Below, piece after piece: positions 5,090 through 64,000 of a stretch of DNA of 64,000 nucleotides. The notes beneath the pieces were generated by a model. The model had not been told where the DNA came from and did not search any database. It worked only from the letters and a program-made list of their open reading frames with translations. The stretch is taken from NCBI GenBank assembly GCA_014801075.1, contig JAAVEW010000020.1, positions 94,037 to 158,036 of the forward strand, written 5' to 3'. The DNA comes from Barnesiella sp. (GTDB lineage Bacteria; Bacteroidota; Bacteroidia; Bacteroidales; Muribaculaceae). The translations under genes were made by a program, and so were the position numbers. Position 1 is the first letter of the stretch. Every line of letters begins with the position of its first letter.

Positions 5090-6553
5090 ATGAATATTTC
5101 AGTATATGTATTTAAGAAGGTCGGGAGGGAAACGGGAGCTAAAGTGGAATCCTTCCCGACCGCTCTTGACAAGGGGACGCAGAAGGTTGTCGGCGATATC
5201 AGAATCGAGGGCGAGAGGAACGCCGCCCTCGTGGTGAGGCGCAATGGCAATCTGATGTATTATATCTATGCAGTCAATGTTGACGATGATATATTCGGGT
5301 TTATATTTATAGTGAATAATGCCTATCTTGCGCATGTGGATTCGTTGAGTCGCTTCTGCAGCGATATGATAGGCACGATAGCCGCCCGACACTTGCTTCT
5401 GAAATGGTCGTCGGCGGGTCAGCTGTGCTTTACCGACTCTCGATTCGTGAAGTGTAGCGACGAGGCGAGTCAGGTGTTGATGCGTCTTGAAGAGATACGC
5501 AACGTGTCGGTGTTCAACAAGGCAATCGCGCTCCCTCTGCTCGACTATGGTGCTGAGACCAAGCACGTTGTTATGAATTGTTGGAATTCACAAGAGCTGC
5601 CTGCCATACCGCAGAGCCACCGTCAGGTGGAGGTTGTGGAGATGCGGCTGCCGAAAGTCGATTTCCACGTGGCGGACGTGATACACTCGCTGCACGATAC
5701 CAACCTCTCGTGGGAAAAACAGTATGATGAACTGACGGAGAAATATACCAGACTCAGTAATCAGAAGAAGAGGATGAAATGGGTGATAATCCTCGGTTTG
5801 TGCATGGTGGCCGGCGGTGTGGTGCTGTTTGCCGTGAACAAGAATCTGAAACGTACGCAGTCAAATCTGAGCGAAGCACATACAGCTATCGACAGCCTGT
5901 CGGTGGAGAAAGCTGTTTTAATCTCCGACGTGGATAAACTGTATAATGTCTCCGAAATATACAGTAATGAAATAAAGTCATTGAAATCGGACTATATTAC
6001 GGCCATTGACAGGATATCATATCTGGAGTCAAAAATGCCGGTTGAGGTGACTTCAATGAGGTTGATTTATATTTGTGACGGTTATTCTTATTCCGGAGGG
6101 ACGCCGGTCAAGGATCAGGTAAGCGCCATCAGTTTTGATGTCAAATACAAGGTCAGCCGATTCAAGGGAGTCGATATTTCGAAATACCCTTCGGTGGAAC
6201 TCTACCGTCCGGCCCGGTATGACCTTAAGGAGCAGGAAGCAAATGCCAATCTTATTGAAGAAGAGCAGCCGGAAATACAGGCAGAAGCTGAGTCTGCAGA
6301 TTGCTCTCGACCTAAACAATTGTATCTTGCTTTGAGATGTTATTACAAACCGTATTCTTCAGGTTCATTGGATTATGTTCTGAAAGGGGTATACGGTTTT
6401 ACACTTAATATCTCTTCCAGCAGTAGCGGGTCTGTCAGTACGCCGTCGTTCAGCATGGGCTTCACTAAATTCCCCGCAGGGGCTTATCGCATAGAACTAT
6501 GGGATACGTGGGAGAACAAGTGTATGTATTATACTGTTTTCACTATAAGTTAA
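5090..6553 (+). CDS. Second GTPase-associated membrane protein (N-domain, coiled coil, TM, C-domain)
   Basis: Start taken at MNISVYVF (5090). TM WVIILGLCMVAGGVVLFAV is flanked by coiled coils; same layout as 3316-5076. Confidence 0.65.
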   Translation: MNISVYVFKKVGRETGAKVESFPTALDKGTQKVVGDIRIEGERNAALVVRRNGNLMYYIYAVNVDDDIFGFIFIVNNAYLAHVDSLSRFCSDMIGTIAARHLLLKWSSAGQLCFTDSRFVKCSDEASQVLMRLEEIRNVSVFNKAIALPLLDYGAETKHVVMNCWNSQELPAIPQSHRQVEVVEMRLPKVDFHVADVIHSLHDTNLSWEKQYDELTEKYTRLSNQKKRMKWVIILGLCMVAGGVVLFAVNKNLKRTQSNLSEAHTAIDSLSVEKAVLISDVDKLYNVSEIYSNEIKSLKSDYITAIDRISYLESKMPVEVTSMRLIYICDGYSYSGGTPVKDQVSAISFDVKYKVSRFKGVDISKYPSVELYRPARYDLKEQEANANLIEEEQPEIQAEAESADCSRPKQLYLALRCYYKPYSSGSLDYVLKGVYGFTLNISSSSSGSVSTPSFSMGFTKFPAGAYRIELWDTWENKCMYYTVFTIS

Positions 6554-6592: not shown

Positions 6593-6619
6593 GAGCGCGG
6601 GTCAGGAGACCCCCGCCAC
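6593..6619 (+). repeat. REP-like GC-rich repeat, single copy
   Basis: GAGCGCGGGTCAGGAGACCCCCGCCAC is identical to the core at 19266-19292. Confidence 0.8.
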
Positions 6620-6826
6620 ATGGTGTTATCCCTGCTATGTGGTATAAAAGTGAGAGTGCGCTGTAAACATTAATTACGACACTGCCCTCTTTTTCTTTTT
6701 CAATGTGTAAAAAAATCGGGGTGGGTGGCGTAAACGTGAATAAAAAACGGGGGCGGGGTGGCGTATTGTCGAAGATATTTGCTATATTCGCGTTATAAAC
6801 CGTTTTTTTGATAATTTGATATTACC

Positions 6827-19150: not shown

Positions 19151-19350
19151 GGGGCCGTCCTCGGCCGCGCTTCGTGGCGCTTCGTGGCGGGGGTCTCCTG
19201 ACCCGCGCTCTGCCACTTTTGGAATTATACAAGGAGTGGGTGAGTGTCGAATTGTGTAAGTGGGTGAGCGCGGGTCAGGAGACCCCCGCCACGAGGCGTT
19301 ACGAGGCGTCAAATTGCGTAGGGTGGTGTAGTGCGGCCGAGGACGGCCCC
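19151..19350. repeat. Nested inverted REP-like repeat cluster
   Basis: Perfect 29-bp IR 19182-19210/19266-19294 inside a perfect 18-bp IR 19151-19168/19333-19350. Confidence 0.8.
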
Positions 19351-28423: not shown

Positions 28424-28511
28424 TTCTGTTTTAGGAAAATAGCGCCGAAAAGTTATGATTATGGCGAGGATTTCAGTATATTTGTCGGTATGACGATATT
28501 GATGGACTGGT

Positions 28512-28727
28512 ATGGAGATATGGATTCTGGTATTTGTGGTTGTCATTGTTTTAAAGGCAATTAAAATTCCGACGAAAAGTTCGGGTGGGACAACGATGCG
28601 CAGGCTACGTTCGCGCCGACGTGCAACGGGCTCAAGAGCACATGGATTGCCGTGGATGGACCCCAATTACAAGAAAGCTATGAAACAAAAAGAGAGGATG
28701 CGCAACTCTAATAAGTTCTTAACGTAA
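28512..28727 (+). CDS. Small single-TM Arg-rich protein (paralog of prophage gene 63471-63638)
   Basis: MEIWILVFVVVIVLKAIKIPT...GLPWMDPNYKK; TATATTTG at 28477-28484 upstream. Confidence 0.7.
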   Translation: MEIWILVFVVVIVLKAIKIPTKSSGGTTMRRLRSRRRATGSRAHGLPWMDPNYKKAMKQKERMRNSNKFLT

Positions 28728-28781
28728 ACATGCTCTAAGAGCGGAGTGTGCAAAACCAACTCCGTTTTTGTTGCGGTAAAA

Positions 28782-28832
28782 AAAAGCATCAGGAGGGTGT
28801 AACTTGTTGAGTTACACCCTCCTGATGCTTTT
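28782..28832 (-). terminator. Terminator of the interrupted tRNA locus
   Basis: Perfect 22-bp IR 28782-28803/28811-28832 with an A-run on + (U-tract on -), immediately after the tRNA-like CCA end. Confidence 0.75.
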
Positions 28833-29647: not shown

Positions 29648-30208
29648 ATGAACAGGCCATTAACGGATATAGAATTTTTTTCATACGAAGGAGAAGTTTG
29701 GTATCGACACCGGGATTCTACTCTTAACCTCCTTCGTGAAGCTGACACCAATATCCTTGACGCGCTCATGGATACTATCTCGACTTTCTACCCCAAAGCT
29801 TATGAAGCGTTGTGTGCAGAATATAAAGGCTGCGCGCTTAATCGGTCGTATTATCGCTTCCGTATAGCCTGTCGATTTATTCGGTGCAACTTTGCACAAT
29901 TGGATAATATCCCGGATGTCGCGGACGGGTGCCAGTGCTCTTTCGAATATGTGCCTTGCCCTCTTCGTGGTGAGTGCCGGCACGAGAGAATTATCTGTCG
30001 CCCCGAGTTCGACCATAAATTATCAGTGGCCGAGATACCGGTCCTTAAGTTATGGTACAATGGACTTTCTGTCGATGAAATCGCAGCGCAGCTGTGTCTC
30101 TCTCCCCATACTATTCATAATCACATTCGCCATGCGTATCAACGGCTCAATATCCACACTAAAAGTGAATTTGTCAGATATGCCTCTCAACACAACTTGT
30201 TCACATGA
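29648..30208 (+). CDS. Transcription regulator with C-terminal LuxR-type HTH and Cys-rich N-domain
   Basis: GLSVDEIAAQLCLSPHTIHNHIRHAYQRLNI; CPLRGEC...C. Confidence 0.8.
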   Translation: MNRPLTDIEFFSYEGEVWYRHRDSTLNLLREADTNILDALMDTISTFYPKAYEALCAEYKGCALNRSYYRFRIACRFIRCNFAQLDNIPDVADGCQCSFEYVPCPLRGECRHERIICRPEFDHKLSVAEIPVLKLWYNGLSVDEIAAQLCLSPHTIHNHIRHAYQRLNIHTKSEFVRYASQHNLFT

Positions 30209-39100: not shown

Positions 39101-39371
39101 TTTGGCACTGTTAGTATATTGTCGTATATTTGCAGTGCTACAAATCACGATAGTAAGTCTATCCCGCCGGGCTCGGTTAATGCTCGACATGTTCCTCGGG
39201 CTTTTTTTATGCCCTTACTTAACGAAGTTTGCTTCGTTAAGTTTACATACCCAGCCTTACGGCTGCCATTCCGATAATCTTGCACTCGGCAACGGGATTG
39301 CATCGTGATTTGTAGCAACGGAATCGGCAGCCGTTTTTTTGTCTGCCTGCTACAAATCACGATGCAATATG
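39101..39371 (+). ncRNA. c4/CI-like antisense-switch leader, copy 1
   Basis: Promoter 39101-39132. A1 (39136-39151) and A2 (39348-39367) are both complementary to A' (39298-39317). Closing stem ACGGCTGCC/GGCAGCCGT followed by a T-run. ATG at 39369. Confidence 0.65.
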
Positions 39372-39644
39372 CAAACAACAGCTCTTACCGCGCCGGCTAC
39401 ACTGGCGCAAGTTCCAAACCTCCGCGCTATGGCTATGCGTGCCATCAGCGCCGCCTTCTCGTCGAAGGCTTTCATTATCGTCGCCGGCTTAGTGGCCGCG
39501 ATGATGTATTTCCACTTCATTACCATAGTCGACACCATCGCGATGCAGCGTGCCCTCGCCACTGACTGTCTCTGCGCTGCGCCCTGGGCCCTCGCCCGGC
39601 TTATACGCTCAATCAGGAAAGGAGGTAGCTATGCACGGATTTAA
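39369..39644 (+). CDS. Small hydrophobic protein, first gene under leader copy 1
   Basis: MQTTALTAP...; TM-like stretch FIIVAGLVAAMMYFHFI. Confidence 0.6.
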   Translation: MQTTALTAPATLAQVPNLRAMAMRAISAAFSSKAFIIVAGLVAAMMYFHFITIVDTIAMQRALATDCLCAAPWALARLIRSIRKGGSYARI

Positions 39645-39861
39645 GGAAGACCTTCTCAATGTAGTTGCCCGGTGCGTCGTCGAGGACTGGGAGTTATCAG
39701 AAGGAAATGTCGAATATTGTGCCGACAGAGTACGTAAATCCGGCCTCTCAACCGCCGACCTGGCCGACTACCTTTTCGAGCGTAAGCATGTTGCCCCCGT
39801 GTGCGTTATCACCGTATTCGACCACATCGTAAATCCTATCGAGGAAGGAGGTGAGTCATGA
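39631..39861 (+). CDS. Hypothetical phage protein
   Basis: MHGFKEDLL; AAGGAGGT upstream. Confidence 0.6.
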   Translation: MHGFKEDLLNVVARCVVEDWELSEGNVEYCADRVRKSGLSTADLADYLFERKHVAPVCVITVFDHIVNPIEEGGES

Positions 39862-40100
39862 ATGAATATCTTAGAGCCTATTGGGAAGAAAAGACTTCTA
39901 CGTTATGCAAGACTCTCAAAGTAGCGAAGAAGGCTCACAAGTTCCCTTACATCTACCGTGTGTGGTTAAATTCTAAACTCGAAATAATAGGCCAAGAGCC
40001 TGTGTGGTGTTATGGCATATCAGTCTGCACTATCAAACGGGCAGACTCCATTATTGCAGATCGTCTAACCGCTAAATCTCATGAAGGAGGTGAGCAATGA
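39858..40100 (+). CDS. Hypothetical phage protein
   Basis: ATGA overlap with AAGGAGGT upstream. Confidence 0.6.
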   Translation: MNEYLRAYWEEKTSTLCKTLKVAKKAHKFPYIYRVWLNSKLEIIGQEPVWCYGISVCTIKRADSIIADRLTAKSHEGGEQ

Positions 40101-40609
40101 ACCGTGCAACTCCGATTCCCAACGTTGTAATCACCCCTACCGTAGCAGCTGACAGCGAAGAAGGGTGCAAGGTCGTTAACATCGTTATCGATGTGCAGGC
40201 AACCCCGGAAATATCAAACGGCTTCGTCGTGCTCGATGAGCCCGAGGACCTTCACATCCTCCGACGTGCCATCGATAAGTATATTAAATTGCATAACATT
40301 CCTAATACGAATCATATGAATACAGAAGAAGACAAAAAGAGTGCGGCCGCCGACACTGAGAGTGAAAGCCGGCCGAGGTTCCTCGATGTAATCGAGGGTG
40401 TGATTAACGCTGAGTGGAGGCCCACGAGAGGGTTTAATCCTGATGACAGACATCGATTCAGGATTCTGTCGTCACAGGACATCGTTCTACAGCTGGCCGA
40501 CATGGTCGACATGGAGCTTAACGATGTGGCTGAGGCGATGCTATTCCTGGGCTATCGTACCATAGTGTATGATGACAGTGTCGGGTGGCTCCTCGAGCGC
40601 CGCCCGTAG
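40097..40609 (+). CDS. Hypothetical phage protein; C-terminal half is a paralog of 63189-63443
   Basis: ATGA overlap; internal in-frame ATG at 40316. Confidence 0.6.
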   Translation: MNRATPIPNVVITPTVAADSEEGCKVVNIVIDVQATPEISNGFVVLDEPEDLHILRRAIDKYIKLHNIPNTNHMNTEEDKKSAAADTESESRPRFLDVIEGVINAEWRPTRGFNPDDRHRFRILSSQDIVLQLADMVDMELNDVAEAMLFLGYRTIVYDDSVGWLLERRP

Positions 40610-41522: not shown

Positions 41523-41993
41523 ATGTCTCAATTTTCCGTTTACATCAATCCGCCCGAATACCTCGGCCAGTGGTTGCGCCATGACTACTGGGATACCGAG
41601 AAAGGCAGAGTTTCTTTTCCGCGCGGTTCTGCTCCGCGTGCCATCCTCAAATCATTGCTGCGTAAAGCTCCGGCTACATATGTAGAATGTGGCCGCGAGG
41701 AAATGATTCCTGTTGAAGTCCCCTCATTCAAGGGGCTCAACCCCGCGTCATTCAACTACCTGTCGCCAACAGGAAAGAAAGCTCTTATCTCCGCTTGCAG
41801 AGATTTGTTTCAGGCAACTCTCGTCGATGAGTTGCATGAGCTCTTTTTCCATGATATTAAAATCACCGATATTATTTATGACTTCATGGACCGGCACGGT
41901 ATCGAACGAACCGAACAGAACTGGGAAGCCATCCGACAGATGTATTATAGAGTGCGCAAAAGGAACAAATCGCCTAAGGTTAAATTATGTTAA
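41523..41993 (+). CDS. Hypothetical phage protein preceding the head genes
   Basis: 156 aa; TATCTTTG at 41420-41427 upstream. Confidence 0.7.
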   Translation: MSQFSVYINPPEYLGQWLRHDYWDTEKGRVSFPRGSAPRAILKSLLRKAPATYVECGREEMIPVEVPSFKGLNPASFNYLSPTGKKALISACRDLFQATLVDELHELFFHDIKITDIIYDFMDRHGIERTEQNWEAIRQMYYRVRKRNKSPKVKLC

Positions 41994-51217: not shown

Positions 51218-51459
51218 ATCCTAAAATGACTTTTTAGGGTAGTATTGGACCTCATTTAACGCTAAGATGAATCGTTTTTACCCTCAAAAATGACTTTTTT
51301 GGTAGCGGTTGACATATTTTAACAGTCACCCTTCGGGTCGGGCTTTCGTGAACCGAGCCTGTAGTCTCGGCCCTTCGGCTTCAATCCCTGACTCGGTCCC
51401 TCCCGACCTCTTTGTTCAGTGTTTTATTTGTCGTATCTTTGCAGAAATTTTAAGTCCCA

Positions 51460-51990: not shown

Positions 51991-52238
51991 TTTGGCCATG
52001 TACTCTTTTTGTAGTATATTTGCAGTGCCAACTAAAACGAGACGCAAGTCTACCGATGAGCCACGGTTAACGGCTCGAACATCCTTCGGGCATTTTTTAT
52101 GCCCTTACATAAACGGCTACGGCTGTCATATCCTTACAATTTTTGCTCTTCGGAGACAAGTCTTGTTTTAGTTTGGCGACGGGATATGGCAGCCGTTTTT
52201 TTCTCTGCCTGTAATGCCAAACTAAAACAAGCACTATG
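51991..52238 (+). ncRNA. c4/CI-like antisense-switch leader, copy 2
   Basis: Promoter 51991-52022; A1 52027-52043, A' 52160-52177, A2 52216-52231; stem 52119-52133/52182-52196 plus T-run; ATG at 52236. Confidence 0.65.
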
Positions 52239-52625: not shown

Positions 52626-52690
52626 GAAATAATTTTGAGCCATTAACCAACTTCAGGAAACAGGGTGCGTCGCGAGGACTCGCCCTGTTT

Positions 52691-52725
52691 GTCTTTTTCT
52701 ATCGCCTTTATATCTGATACTTTTG
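52691..52725 (+). promoter_or_regulatory. Putative phage late promoter 3
   Basis: GTCTTT-N21-TACTTTTG, just after the hairpin at 52658-52690. Confidence 0.6.
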
Positions 52726-61889: not shown

Positions 61890-62790
61890 AACTTAATCCG
61901 GCGCACGTCGTTGCCCTTGACTTGTCCCACTGCAGACAGGGCCCAAACAAAGGACTTAACGAGTGGGGCATGCCCCGGTCGATAGTCGGGGCGTTCCTTA
62001 AATAGAATGTTGAATTCTCTGCTCTACATGAGGAGATGAGACTGACATGGTGTCAGTTCTCATCTCCTCATTTCGTTTCGTTCATTCACCATACTATTGT
62101 CAGTCACTTAAACCCGCCTGACTCCCTTTCACTCAATCAGTCCTTTGTTTGGGCCGTGCCCGCCATGGGAGTTTGCGCAGCAACAACATGAGCGCCGGAA
62201 GCCCACCCCAGGCCCCTCGTTAGGGCGCTAAGTTCGCACATCGCTCATCAGTCATAGTTTCTTCATCTCGTCGAGGATAAAGTATTGCCGTAGTCCTTCG
62301 GACATCGGCACGAAGCATTGCGCTCGCATTCGTCGTCGGCCCCACCCATTGCCGCTGACTCATTCCGGGCGCCGATGGTGGTTGTTCCAATCACCACCCG
62401 CACCCTCCATCAGTCCAAGGCGCGGAAAAGGGCAGGCCTGACGGCGAGGCGGTACTGTGTACACGCAGCAATGCCCCGGCTACTTACTCCTCTCCTCTAT
62501 ATCATCACTACGCCTTATTCGCTAAGCACTCACTTACGACCCTAACGAGCCGAATACCGCTCCATCGGAGCAGAGCGGTCGCCAATGCCTACACCGCACC
62601 ATCTTACAGATGACAGCGGTGTAGGCGTTGGCCTCATTACCGTGCATCTGTCGCCGTGCCTCGGTTTCGCTCCCATCTGCACGCTTGCCCCACTCGCATA
62701 TTCCGCTTCTTTGAAAGGCTTAGGCGGCATCGCTCCGTAGGGCGGGCGGGGGTCGTTTGACGGAAAAAGGGGAAAAATTCCCCTTTTGAC
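61890..62790 (+). ncRNA. Candidate large structured non-coding RNA/DNA element
   Basis: No credible long ORF. Perfect long-range complements of 17, 11 and 10 bp plus several hairpins with G-U pairs on the + strand. Confidence 0.4.
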
Positions 62791-62944
62791 CCCTTTAAAT
62801 CCTTAGAAATTACGACTTTAATTTTTGAACCCCTGGAAAAATTAAAATAATCGTAAAATTTCACGGAAAACTCTAAGGAAATATCCCTTGCAAACCAGAC
62901 ATTTACGTGTGCTGTAAATTCTCCAAAAAAATATTCATTGTTGC

Positions 62945-63191
62945 TTTGTTTTCGTATTATTTTTTTGTATATTTGCAATGCCAACGTAACATGAGCGTTT
63001 GTCGTTCCCGTAGAGCCACGGTCATCGGCTCGAACATTCTTCGGGCATTTTTTATGCCCTTACAGTCATTTACGGCTGCTGTCCTCTCACAACTTTTGCT
63101 CTTCGGAGACGAAGCTCGTGTTACGTTTGGCGACGGAGGATGGCAGCCGTCTTTTACTACTGCCTGTAACGCCAAATGTAACACAAAAATG
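62945..63191 (+). ncRNA. c4/CI-like antisense-switch leader, copy 3
   Basis: Promoter 62945-62975; A1 62980-62996, A' 63114-63131, A2 63171-63184; stem 63072-63086/63136-63150; ATG at 63189. Confidence 0.65.
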
Positions 63192-63443
63192 GAAGAATTA
63201 AGACAATTGACCATAGGTCAAAAAGCCATCGTAGACGGCTATCTCGAGAATTATGAACCCGCTGAAACTTACGACCACGACATGCATGTGCTCATCGACA
63301 CGCAAACGATGATATTTCAGATGAATACAATGGGGTTCTTCGATGAAAACATGCTATCCGACTACCTCGCAGAAAAAGGTTACCGCGCCCACTTCGAGCC
63401 TGATGACGCGCTAAGTGGCTGGATAATGAAAGAGATTAGATAA
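63189..63443 (+). CDS. Small acidic protein under leader copy 3
   Basis: MEELRQLTIG..., 84 aa. The ORF-track extension to 62907 runs through the promoter and leader. Confidence 0.7.
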   Translation: MEELRQLTIGQKAIVDGYLENYEPAETYDHDMHVLIDTQTMIFQMNTMGFFDENMLSDYLAEKGYRAHFEPDDALSGWIMKEIR

Positions 63444-63470: not shown

Positions 63471-63638
63471 ATGGAAGTATGGATTTTAGTATTTGTAGTG
63501 GTCCTTATTCTCAAAGGGATTAAAGTCCCGACGAACGTGTCGGATGGCTCGCCCTCTTGTCGACGACGTTCACGTAGAACGAGACCCCGCCACAAATCAC
63601 GGGGATTGCCTTGGATGGACCCTAACTACCGTAAATAG
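63471..63638 (+). CDS. Small single-TM Arg-rich protein, 55 aa (paralog of 28512-28727)
   Basis: MEVWILVFVVVLILKGIKVPT...GLPWMDPNYRK*. Confidence 0.7.
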   Translation: MEVWILVFVVVLILKGIKVPTNVSDGSPSCRRRSRRTRPRHKSRGLPWMDPNYRK

Positions 63639-63666
63639 GTATTGTATTTATTAGAAAATAAATCGA

Positions 63667-63703
63667 CGCCACGCTGTATTTAATTTCAGCGTGGCGTTTT
63701 TTT
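63667..63703 (+). terminator. Terminator of the leader-3 operon
   Basis: ACGCCACGCTG/CAGCGTGGCGT followed by a T-run. Confidence 0.75.
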
Positions 63704-63705
63704 GT

Positions 63706-63763: not shown

Positions 63764-64000
63764 ATGAGTGGCATAAAAGATACCGCAACCGTAACCTTAA
63801 ATGTCAATGGCGCGCAGGCAAAGCAGATGATGGGCGAAGTGTCTCAGAAGATTCTCGAGACAAGGGCTAAAATCATTTCGATGCAGGAAAGCATGGCCGA
63901 CCCTAAAGCCATAGAAAAGACTCGCAAGGAACTAAAAAAATACGAAAAACAACTTGAAGAAATGAAGTCAGCTACCGAGGGCGTAAAATCAGCTCTCGGT
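63764..64000 (+). CDS. Probable tape measure protein, N-terminus (3'-truncated)
   Basis: MSGIKDTATVTLNVNGAQAKQMM followed by coiled coil; frame open to the window end. Confidence 0.65.
   Translation, partial: MSGIKDTATVTLNVNGAQAKQMMGEVSQKILETRAKIISMQESMADPKAIEKTRKELKKYEKQLEEMKSATEGVKSALG

Follow-up and report, generated by a model that had tools for sequence, protein, structure and literature searches.

In phages P1 and P7, c4 is an antisense element in its target's own transcript, where it blocks the ribosome-binding region of a small first open reading frame (ORF) with polarity on the genes downstream, and covarying boxes (a1 b1 and a2 b2) set its specificity; once cut out by RNase P, it works in trans on an antirepressor operon. 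In lambda, the host-type promoter PR' is followed, past the 6S RNA and about 200 nt on, by the terminator tR', which precedes the late genes and is subject to Q antitermination. Phage P4 immunity has premature termination as its output, and IsrK is a promoter-proximal RNA with its own terminator, whose read-through transcripts fold into either inactive or active structures and thereby govern translation of a small first ORF (PMC4825925). The present study concerns a leader from a prophage of Barnesiella sp., at 62945-63191 on the plus strand of a 64,000-nt stretch of DNA, hereafter the window (assembly GCA_014801075.1, contig JAAVEW010000020.1, positions 94,037 to 158,036). This leader module, the third copy of its kind in the window, consists of a promoter and a ~210-nt leader with three boxes, A1, A', and A2, and a 15-bp stem followed by a U-tract. 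Boxes and stem alike are genuine RNA pairings that undergo compensatory change, both within the genome and in about 60 homologues. We propose, with confidence that is evenly balanced, that the leader is a cis-acting, multistate 5' element in which transcription attenuation is coupled to the masking of the initiation region of the first ORF.

The closest analogues of the leader are P4 seqA/CI/seqC, P1 c4, and IsrK. In the PLE leader of satellite phage P4 (seqA, CI RNA or seqB, and seqC), as in the window, one central box of an untranslated leader near the promoter is complementary to two flanking boxes that resemble each other, and box sequences vary between related elements. However, the P4 central box is a processed, trans-acting RNA that controls replication genes, whereas the boxes in the window lie within ~210 nt before structural genes; moreover, A1 falls at the very 5' end of the predicted RNA as part of a 31-bp rod, A2 overlaps the ORF start region, and there is no Rfam C4 match. 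IsrK is resembled in the putative terminator near the promoter and in the alternative structures before a small first ORF, but IsrK is activated by its short form in trans, and the window leader has no homology to it and belongs to a host of another phylum. With c4 the leader shares an antisense element and target in one transcript, specificity residing in a box set, and the involvement of the first ORF's initiation region; the excision of c4, its action in trans on an antirepressor operon, and the missing Rfam match set the two apart. A host-type promoter followed at ~200 nt by a terminator-like stem, ahead of late genes, recalls lambda PR', but the lambda leader lacks three-box pairing, its read-through needs a DNA-loaded protein, and no Q-like protein was identified in the window phage.

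Attenuators and riboswitch expression platforms likewise use mutually exclusive upstream and downstream pairings to decide terminator formation and start masking. In contrast to these, the anti-terminator of the window shares no nucleotides with the terminator and would act by enclosing one arm, the switching helices have 16-31 bp as opposed to the classical 4-8 bp, and the leader contains no known aptamer and no leader peptide, a candidate that was dropped when the reading frames from the 5' end proved not to be kept between copies. Finally, the RNase III stems of rRNA precursors and of the T7 and lambda N leaders also place a long imperfect duplex around a structured RNA, in the phages at the start of a message, but they have neither a built-in terminator nor a duplicated initiation-region box. 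The kind of element, a leader attenuator plus translational switch, is known; its architecture, host phylum, and phage context are new.

Compensated pairings in the leader RNA

In copy 3, box A1 (GCCAACGTAACATGAGC, 62980-62996) and box A2 (GCCAAATGTAACAC, 63171-63184) are near-copies of one another, and the G/U-rich box A' (GCTCGTGTTACGTTTGGC, 63114-63131) is complementary to both alike. Between A1 and A' lies T5' (ACGGCTGCTGTCCTC, 63072-63086), the 5' arm of the terminator-like stem, and behind A' follow the T3' arm (63135-63150, with the stem strand GAGGATGGCAGCCGT at 63136-63150) and the U-tract (CTTTTACTA, 63151-63159), which together resemble an intrinsic terminator. A2 lies within the initiation region of the first ORF and ends 4 nt ahead of its ATG at 63189. 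All of these parts are read on the plus strand, and the box and stem sequences quoted in a first-pass annotation of this DNA were recovered exactly where it had put them, including a stem that is paired at 15 of 15 positions with two G-U pairs. When the partner strand was shuffled 2000 times for each pairing, no shuffle reached the value of A1:A' (-25.8 kcal/mol, z -7.4), of A':A2 (-20.5 kcal/mol, z -7.3), or of the stem (-27.7 kcal/mol, z -6.5), and the pairings of copy 3 overall have z from -6.5 to -7.9 relative to the shuffled controls.

Two further copies are found upstream on the same strand. Copy 2 (51991-52235, scaffold from ~51987) comprises a promoter (51991-52022), A1 (52027-52043), A' (52160-52177), T3' (52181-52196), a small box termed T2 (52205-52209), and A2 (52216-52231) before an ATG at 52236. 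Copy 1 (39101-39368, scaffold from ~39097) has the same order, with promoter (39101-39132), A1 (39137-39151), A' (39302-39316), T3' (39319-39334), T2 (39343-39347), and A2 (39349-39364) before an ORF start at 39369, and carries an additional inserted hairpin. Repeat finding and alignment show that the three copies have a common scaffold, including a 57-nt block that is 91% identical between copies 2 and 3, together with unrelated A boxes and compensated inner stem pairs. The first-pass interpretation of the differences between copies as compensated covariation is borne out, and it extends to about 60 homologues.

These homologues were retrieved by scanning public collections with three independent anchors: the core hairpin, the 3' stem arm, and a small pseudoknot. 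The pseudoknot pattern was drowned in chance matches in genome-wide scans of high-GC genomes and was productive in viral contigs; a G-U-tolerant three-box scan was noisy, its clean matches being exactly the three window modules and one in the phage BT-TP2; and locus retrieval anchored on single proteins returned almost no loci. Muribaculaceae-type phages, from Muribaculaceae and Sangeribacter metagenome-assembled genomes, yielded 44 distinct full modules and one truncated remnant; from this origin the host of the element is a Bacteroidales bacterium. A diverged subfamily of 15 members with the same architecture, in BT-TP2-like Bacteroides phages, comes from human-gut, wastewater, and pig-gut viral contigs. 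It includes the cultured Bacteroides phage BT-TP2 itself (PQ571279.1, 16036-16368), in which a single module leads the operon from gp19 to portal and beyond. BT-TP2 carries a tyrosine integrase and is not a hankyphage, and the hankyphage paper makes no mention of such a leader. Rfam gave no match at gathering score in the whole window and none beyond noise up to E = 10 in 62880-63260 (AgvB, E 7.3; DicF, E 6.1), and in the same scans no C4, IsrK, or known riboswitch aptamer model matched; literature searches found no description of this leader. It is a genuine, conserved leader RNA family and apparently an undescribed one.

The box energies and the covariation of boxes and stem were obtained for the 44 distinct homologues. 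Cognate boxes pair at a mean of -23.4 kcal/mol for A1:A' and -25.1 kcal/mol for A':A2, compared with -11.5 and -12.8 kcal/mol, respectively, for non-cognate boxes, and the cognate partner is the best of the 44 in 40-41 of 44 cases. In a gapless box alignment, A':A2 is 95.1% paired, 12 of its 16 pairs change on both sides, and its covariation score is 0.618 compared with 0.145 for shuffled alignments, none of which (0 of 500) reaches it. A1:A' occurs in two about equally frequent registers, with or without a bulged U, and is 95.5% paired when the better register is taken for each sequence, versus 72% for non-cognate pairs, while the terminator-like stem is 98% paired and has seven covarying pairs. 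With 75 G-U pairs and not one A-C mismatch in the box helices, the active strand must be the plus-strand RNA; because A' is rich in G and U and can wobble, A1 and A2 may differ by transitions and yet both pair with it. The further idea that the boxes are under selection for orthogonality found no support, since non-cognate pairs have a mean of -12.4 kcal/mol within genomes versus -13.1 kcal/mol between genomes (permutation p 0.25-0.41), and one pair on the same contig cross-pairs at -21 kcal/mol.

A1:A' proved to be only the outer part of a longer 5' rod of 28-34 bp (mean 31 bp), which the first-pass annotation missed, as it did the CTGCC box at 63160-63164 and the terminator of the two-gene unit behind copy 3. 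The strands of the rod are the first ~38 nt of the RNA (A1, a local hairpin P2, and the motif CYGNNGAGC) and the ~36 nt immediately before T3' (the region of a small hairpin h, and A'), and its mean energy is -43 kcal/mol versus -27 kcal/mol for non-cognate pairs. In copy 3, P2 (GAGCG-TTTGT-CGTTC, 62993-63007) has arms that alternatively lengthen the long-range rod, CCGTAGAGC (63008-63016) forms the inner part of the 5' strand, as A1 forms the outer part, and h (GCTC-TTCG-GAGA, 63098-63110) includes the inner part of the 3' strand. In this inner rod the nine-base motif CYGNNGAGC, 3' of A1, pairs with GCUCNNCRG of the small hairpin 5' of A' (63098-63106 in copy 3). The helix is 90.6% paired, and covariation at its two N positions, with 12 and 8 double changes, was matched by none of 500 shuffles. 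CYGNNGAGC can alternatively pair locally as a small pseudoknot, in copy 3 with CGG at 63019-63021 and GGCTC at 63027-63031, and here CCG:CGG has become CUG:CAG in two members.

Downstream, the CUGYC box 3' of the U-tract (T2; CTGCC in copy 3) repeats a portion of the 5' stem arm and is paired with GRCAG in the 3' arm. Reading of the sequences shows GGCAG/CUGCC replaced by GACAG/CUGUC among homologues; the stretch is misaligned by MAFFT, hence no formal covariation count is given for it. Because CUGYC pairs with GRCAG, this helix and A':A2 make up one long nested hairpin with T2 at its tip and the U-tract in its loop. The conserved core (GGCTCGAACATTCTTCGGGCATTTTTTATGCCC, 63027-63059) contains GCUCG, CGGGC, and GCYCG, which permit either of two hairpins, in copy 3 GGGCAT/ATGCCC or GCTCGAA/TTCGGGC followed by a U-run, and its apical part is conserved in sequence more than pairing requires. 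At 63028-63055, 52073-52100, and 39182-39210, GCTCGAA...TTCGGGC followed by ATTTTTTAT scores as terminator-like and competes with the conserved GGGCAT/ATGCCC hairpin; this site may represent a decision point that comes earlier, or a second set of three boxes. The truncated remnant (L039; CAMWVQ010000071.1, ~6200-6431) keeps a remnant of the core hairpin, T5', h, A', and T3' and is without A1, the U-tract, T2, and A2, and is probably a decayed or recombined copy.

A proposed cis-acting switch and its alternatives

The rod, the terminator stem, and the downstream hairpin are three states that exclude one another when treated as nested structures. Across the family, nested folds containing the rod (-72.3 kcal/mol) or the downstream hairpin (-73.3 kcal/mol) are isoenergetic, with a difference of -0.9 (sd 3.1), and the terminator-only nested fold is 12.3 kcal/mol weaker than the rod once T3' is just complete. 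The pairs of the rod and the terminator cross, and we argue that the two cannot coexist, because ~11 nt tie T5' to the inner end of a ~100 Å helix whereas T3' exits at its outer end. As in attenuators, a G+C-rich stem in a 5' leader runs directly into a U-tract (4-8 U in the 9 nt after T3' in all 44 homologues) and an alternative structure excludes it; as in riboregulators, a conserved helix, A':A2, covers the region just 5' of the start codon. The distance from the end of A2 to the ATG is 0-8 nt in nearly all homologues. Initiation regions in the phylum of the window's host are not known to use Shine-Dalgarno sequences, and Bacteroidota ribosomes depend on the stretch ahead of the start codon being open and A-rich.

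The promoter of copy 3 (62945-62975, plus strand) consists of TTTG (62945-62948), a 19-nt spacer, and TATATTTG (62968-62975), in keeping with the Bacteroides sigma-A promoter consensus TTTG-N17-23-TAnnTTTG. Full-consensus matches number 12 in the window, with 0.95 expected, and only four fall on the plus strand between 39 and 64 kb, namely the three modules and one at 51411, which makes the modules the obvious entry points for late transcription. The copy 3 transcript is predicted to start at ~62978-62980, so that A1 would be the 5' end of the RNA. A promoter within the A' box was also considered and rejected, as A' of copy 3 fits TAnnTTTG and most homologues do not. An RNA-seq contig from a BT-TP2-like phage starts ~35 nt past the predicted start and crosses the terminator-like stem into the genes, which supports a promoter at the module and the existence of read-through transcripts; none of the RNA runs examined contains the window itself.

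An alternative-pairing switch is the natural reading of these results, since the pairings are real, strand-specific, and directly before ORF 63189-63443, with A2 abutting its start codon. In the mechanism that we propose, the leader would have a host-type promoter of its own and would head a late transcription unit of the phage. In the ON state the rod would be closed, with A' occupied and T5' inside the closed loop, such that T3' could not complete the terminator stem; RNA polymerase would then read through, and A2 and the start codon would stay open. In the OFF state the 5' strand would be withheld, whereupon T5':T3' with its U-tract would form and transcription would be attenuated, and any escaping transcripts would fold into the downstream hairpin (A':A2 plus GRCAG:CUGYC), which would hide the first ORF's initiation region. 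If the first ORF then goes untranslated, polarity may further silence the rest of the unit. We infer termination at the stem, its prevention by the rod, a block of translation by the hairpin, and ON as the default co-transcriptional state. Synthesis order and energies predict this default, so that any use of the terminator would require a factor that keeps the 5' strand away; the input could be a protein, a leader-derived RNA, or a nuclease.

Several considerations weigh against this proposal. The mutual exclusion of rod and terminator is argued from geometry and linker lengths. The terminator loop of ~50 nt is unusual for an efficient intrinsic terminator, and some members, such as L013 and L014, have a weak U-tract. 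As energies and synthesis order favor the rod, the terminator would seldom form without an extra factor, and its conservation is explained only by assuming one. The mechanism gives the conserved apical core no role, and the sole RNA evidence is an assembled contig with read-through, which is uninformative on ends or ratios.

Among other explanations, the arrangement of A1 and A2 as direct repeats around an inverted copy is like that of invertible or recombining segments, and the repeats might accordingly act at the DNA level, as recombination or inversion sites, or function on the opposite strand. We regard this as extremely improbable: an excess of G-U over A-C such as that seen in the box helices is expected only of plus-strand RNA, the wholly different box sequences of the copies run contrary to a single site-specific recombinase, and A1 and A2 are often unlike each other, both still pairing with A' by wobble. 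Self-immunity in trans, as in P4 or Gifsy-1 IsrK, is doubtful. Here a terminated or processed leader would pair through its exposed A' (or A1) with A1 and A2 (or A') of later transcripts of the same module and enforce termination and a translational block, or the reverse, giving a self-propagating and possibly bistable switch. The order A1, A', A2 in a promoter-proximal leader with a terminator-like stem is the seqA, CI RNA, seqC layout of P4, A' is unpaired in the large loop of the terminator fold, and in a related Muribaculaceae phage a P22_AR_N antirepressor-like gene (L028, 5675-6115) lies between two tandem modules, an association that recalls c4 and IsrK; the terminated short form of IsrK can, furthermore, act on its own read-through form (PMC4825925). 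Yet A1 and A' stand together on every leader, and a free leader should therefore close on itself unless processed; Rfam shows no match to C4, IsrK, or another family, the modules precede structural genes instead of replication or antirepressor genes, there is no sign of orthogonality selection between modules of one genome, and the RNA contigs, which could not have revealed one, contain no short RNA species. A protein-free, bistable RNA memory would go further still: the rod would enclose a terminator arm without competing for its nucleotides, the exposed A' of terminated leaders would capture the next nascent 5' end, and OFF and ON would both be self-propagating, in several copies with different "addresses" in one genome. 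We consider this decidedly unlikely.

The rod also fits a processing cassette of the RNase III type, in which a double-strand-specific nuclease would cut the rod or the long downstream hairpin, excise the apical domain as a stable small RNA, and give the mRNA a new 5' end that sets its stability and frees or destroys the initiation region. With 28-34 bp, the rod provides the roughly two or more turns of near-continuous duplex that characterize RNase III substrates; it makes about three helical turns of imperfect duplex from sequences that flank a structured ~90-nt core, it resembles rRNA processing stems and the RNase III sites of T7 and lambda leaders, and the apical core is conserved beyond the needs of pairing. 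The RNA contig, too, starts inside the leader and not at the predicted start, but this is no evidence of cleavage, because the start falls within the usual 5' loss of coverage. Processing leaves the terminator stem with its U-tract and the exact placement of A2 at the start codon unexplained, and we judge it unlikely. The strongly conserved core could instead bind RNA polymerase in the manner of HK022 put and confer processive antitermination, resisting the terminator-like stem of the module as well as the terminators at 52663-52700 and 63665-63704, so that each module would drive the long operon behind it. In the scan of 39-64 kb, the 52730-61889 gene block and the tape-measure gene both lack a full-consensus promoter in front of them, and terminator-like hairpins stand between those genes and the modules. 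However, nothing connects the core with polymerase, the A boxes and the A2-ATG adjacency would go unexplained, and the -7-type boxes at 52718 and 63733 could act as activator-dependent promoters, which makes put-like antitermination very improbable.

If the cis-acting switch works as proposed, then one element couples attenuation with translation-start masking. The design is unusual in that each key segment has an upstream and a downstream copy that compete for one central partner, which applies to the A boxes, to the terminator arm, and probably also to the core hairpin. The timing of late genes in temperate gut Bacteroidales phages is almost uncharted and RNA-based control in this phylum is poorly mapped, and the family spans mouse-gut Muribaculaceae phages and BT-TP2-like phages of human-gut Bacteroides. 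Because one BT-TP2-like phage has been cultured on B. thetaiotaomicron, the model is directly testable, and the freely variable "address" boxes could serve as a programmable part for Bacteroides genetics.

Prophage setting and genes behind the modules

From ~28.5 kb on, the window is prophage, with genes for a CI-like helix-turn-helix protein, a LuxR-type regulator, a 1006-aa primase-like protein, a ClpP-type prohead protease, a terminase, and an amidase endolysin. Copy 3 stands directly before ORF 63189-63443 (plus strand; 84 aa, MEELRQLT..., also kept behind homologous modules) and the small membrane ORF at 63471-63638 (plus strand; 55 aa, ending GLPWMDPNYRK), the two genes that the first-pass annotation took it to drive. 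The description there of the module as upstream of the tape-measure gene is correct as to position, but a strong terminator separates the two small genes from the tape-measure ORF, which starts at 63764; this intrinsic-terminator-like hairpin (GACGCCACGCTG/CAGCGTGGCGT followed by T7, 63665-63704, plus strand), as read from the sequence, closes the two-gene unit. A terminator-like hairpin also follows the first small gene(s) behind copy 2 (52663-52700).

Across homologous modules, the first ORFs encode a few conserved types of small protein: the 84-aa MEEL... protein, followed by a small membrane protein and the tape measure; a 129-aa MNEF... protein; a 62-aa MNNKTQSRR... protein; and a small membrane protein that leads a long operon of overlapping genes, as in copy 1 and BT-TP2 gp19. 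The small membrane protein at 63471-63638, behind module 3, has a paralogue at 28505-28730 (MEVWILVFVVV... and MEIWILVFVVV..., respectively, both with GLPWMDPNY), which lies at the left edge of the prophage and has its own promoter-like box, and small proteins with an LPWM motif likewise lie 3' of modules in other phages. The genes behind copy 1 (39600-40110; also in L051-L076 and in BT-TP2 gp19-gp22) overlap, with a strong GGAGG inside the end of the preceding gene. The proteins that precede these motifs end in ...KGG(A/S)E, and such Shine-Dalgarno-like coupling is unusual in Bacteroidota.

A further family co-occurs with the modules, namely the 156-aa protein at 41523-41993 and BT-TP2 gp8 (5501-5989), whose members have 150-160 aa and a basic C-terminal tail and, in both phage groups, are encoded immediately before the prohead protease. 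The family matches nothing in Pfam or PHROG, its confident structure model (pLDDT 89.6) matches nothing in the Protein Data Bank, and its only viral match is an uncharacterized Polaribacter phage protein. We considered it as the cognate regulator and set it aside, since the searches gave no functional lead and the BT-TP2 label "transcriptional regulator" is without visible support; the LuxR-type regulator at 29648-30208 is not homologous to gp8.

Upstream of module 3, ~1 kb at 61890-62900 contains no convincing ORF and gave only noise-level matches in Rfam; its first ~850 nt are GC-rich, and the remainder, up to the module, is AT-rich. Between the small membrane gene and that of the CI-like repressor, probably close to the edge of the prophage, a perfect 20-bp hairpin with T-runs on both sides (28786-28828) resembles a bidirectional terminator. 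In the host part of the window, a 36-nt repeat (GAGCGCGGGTCAGGAGACCCCCGCCAC...) occurs at 6593-6628 and 19266-19301 with 92% identity.
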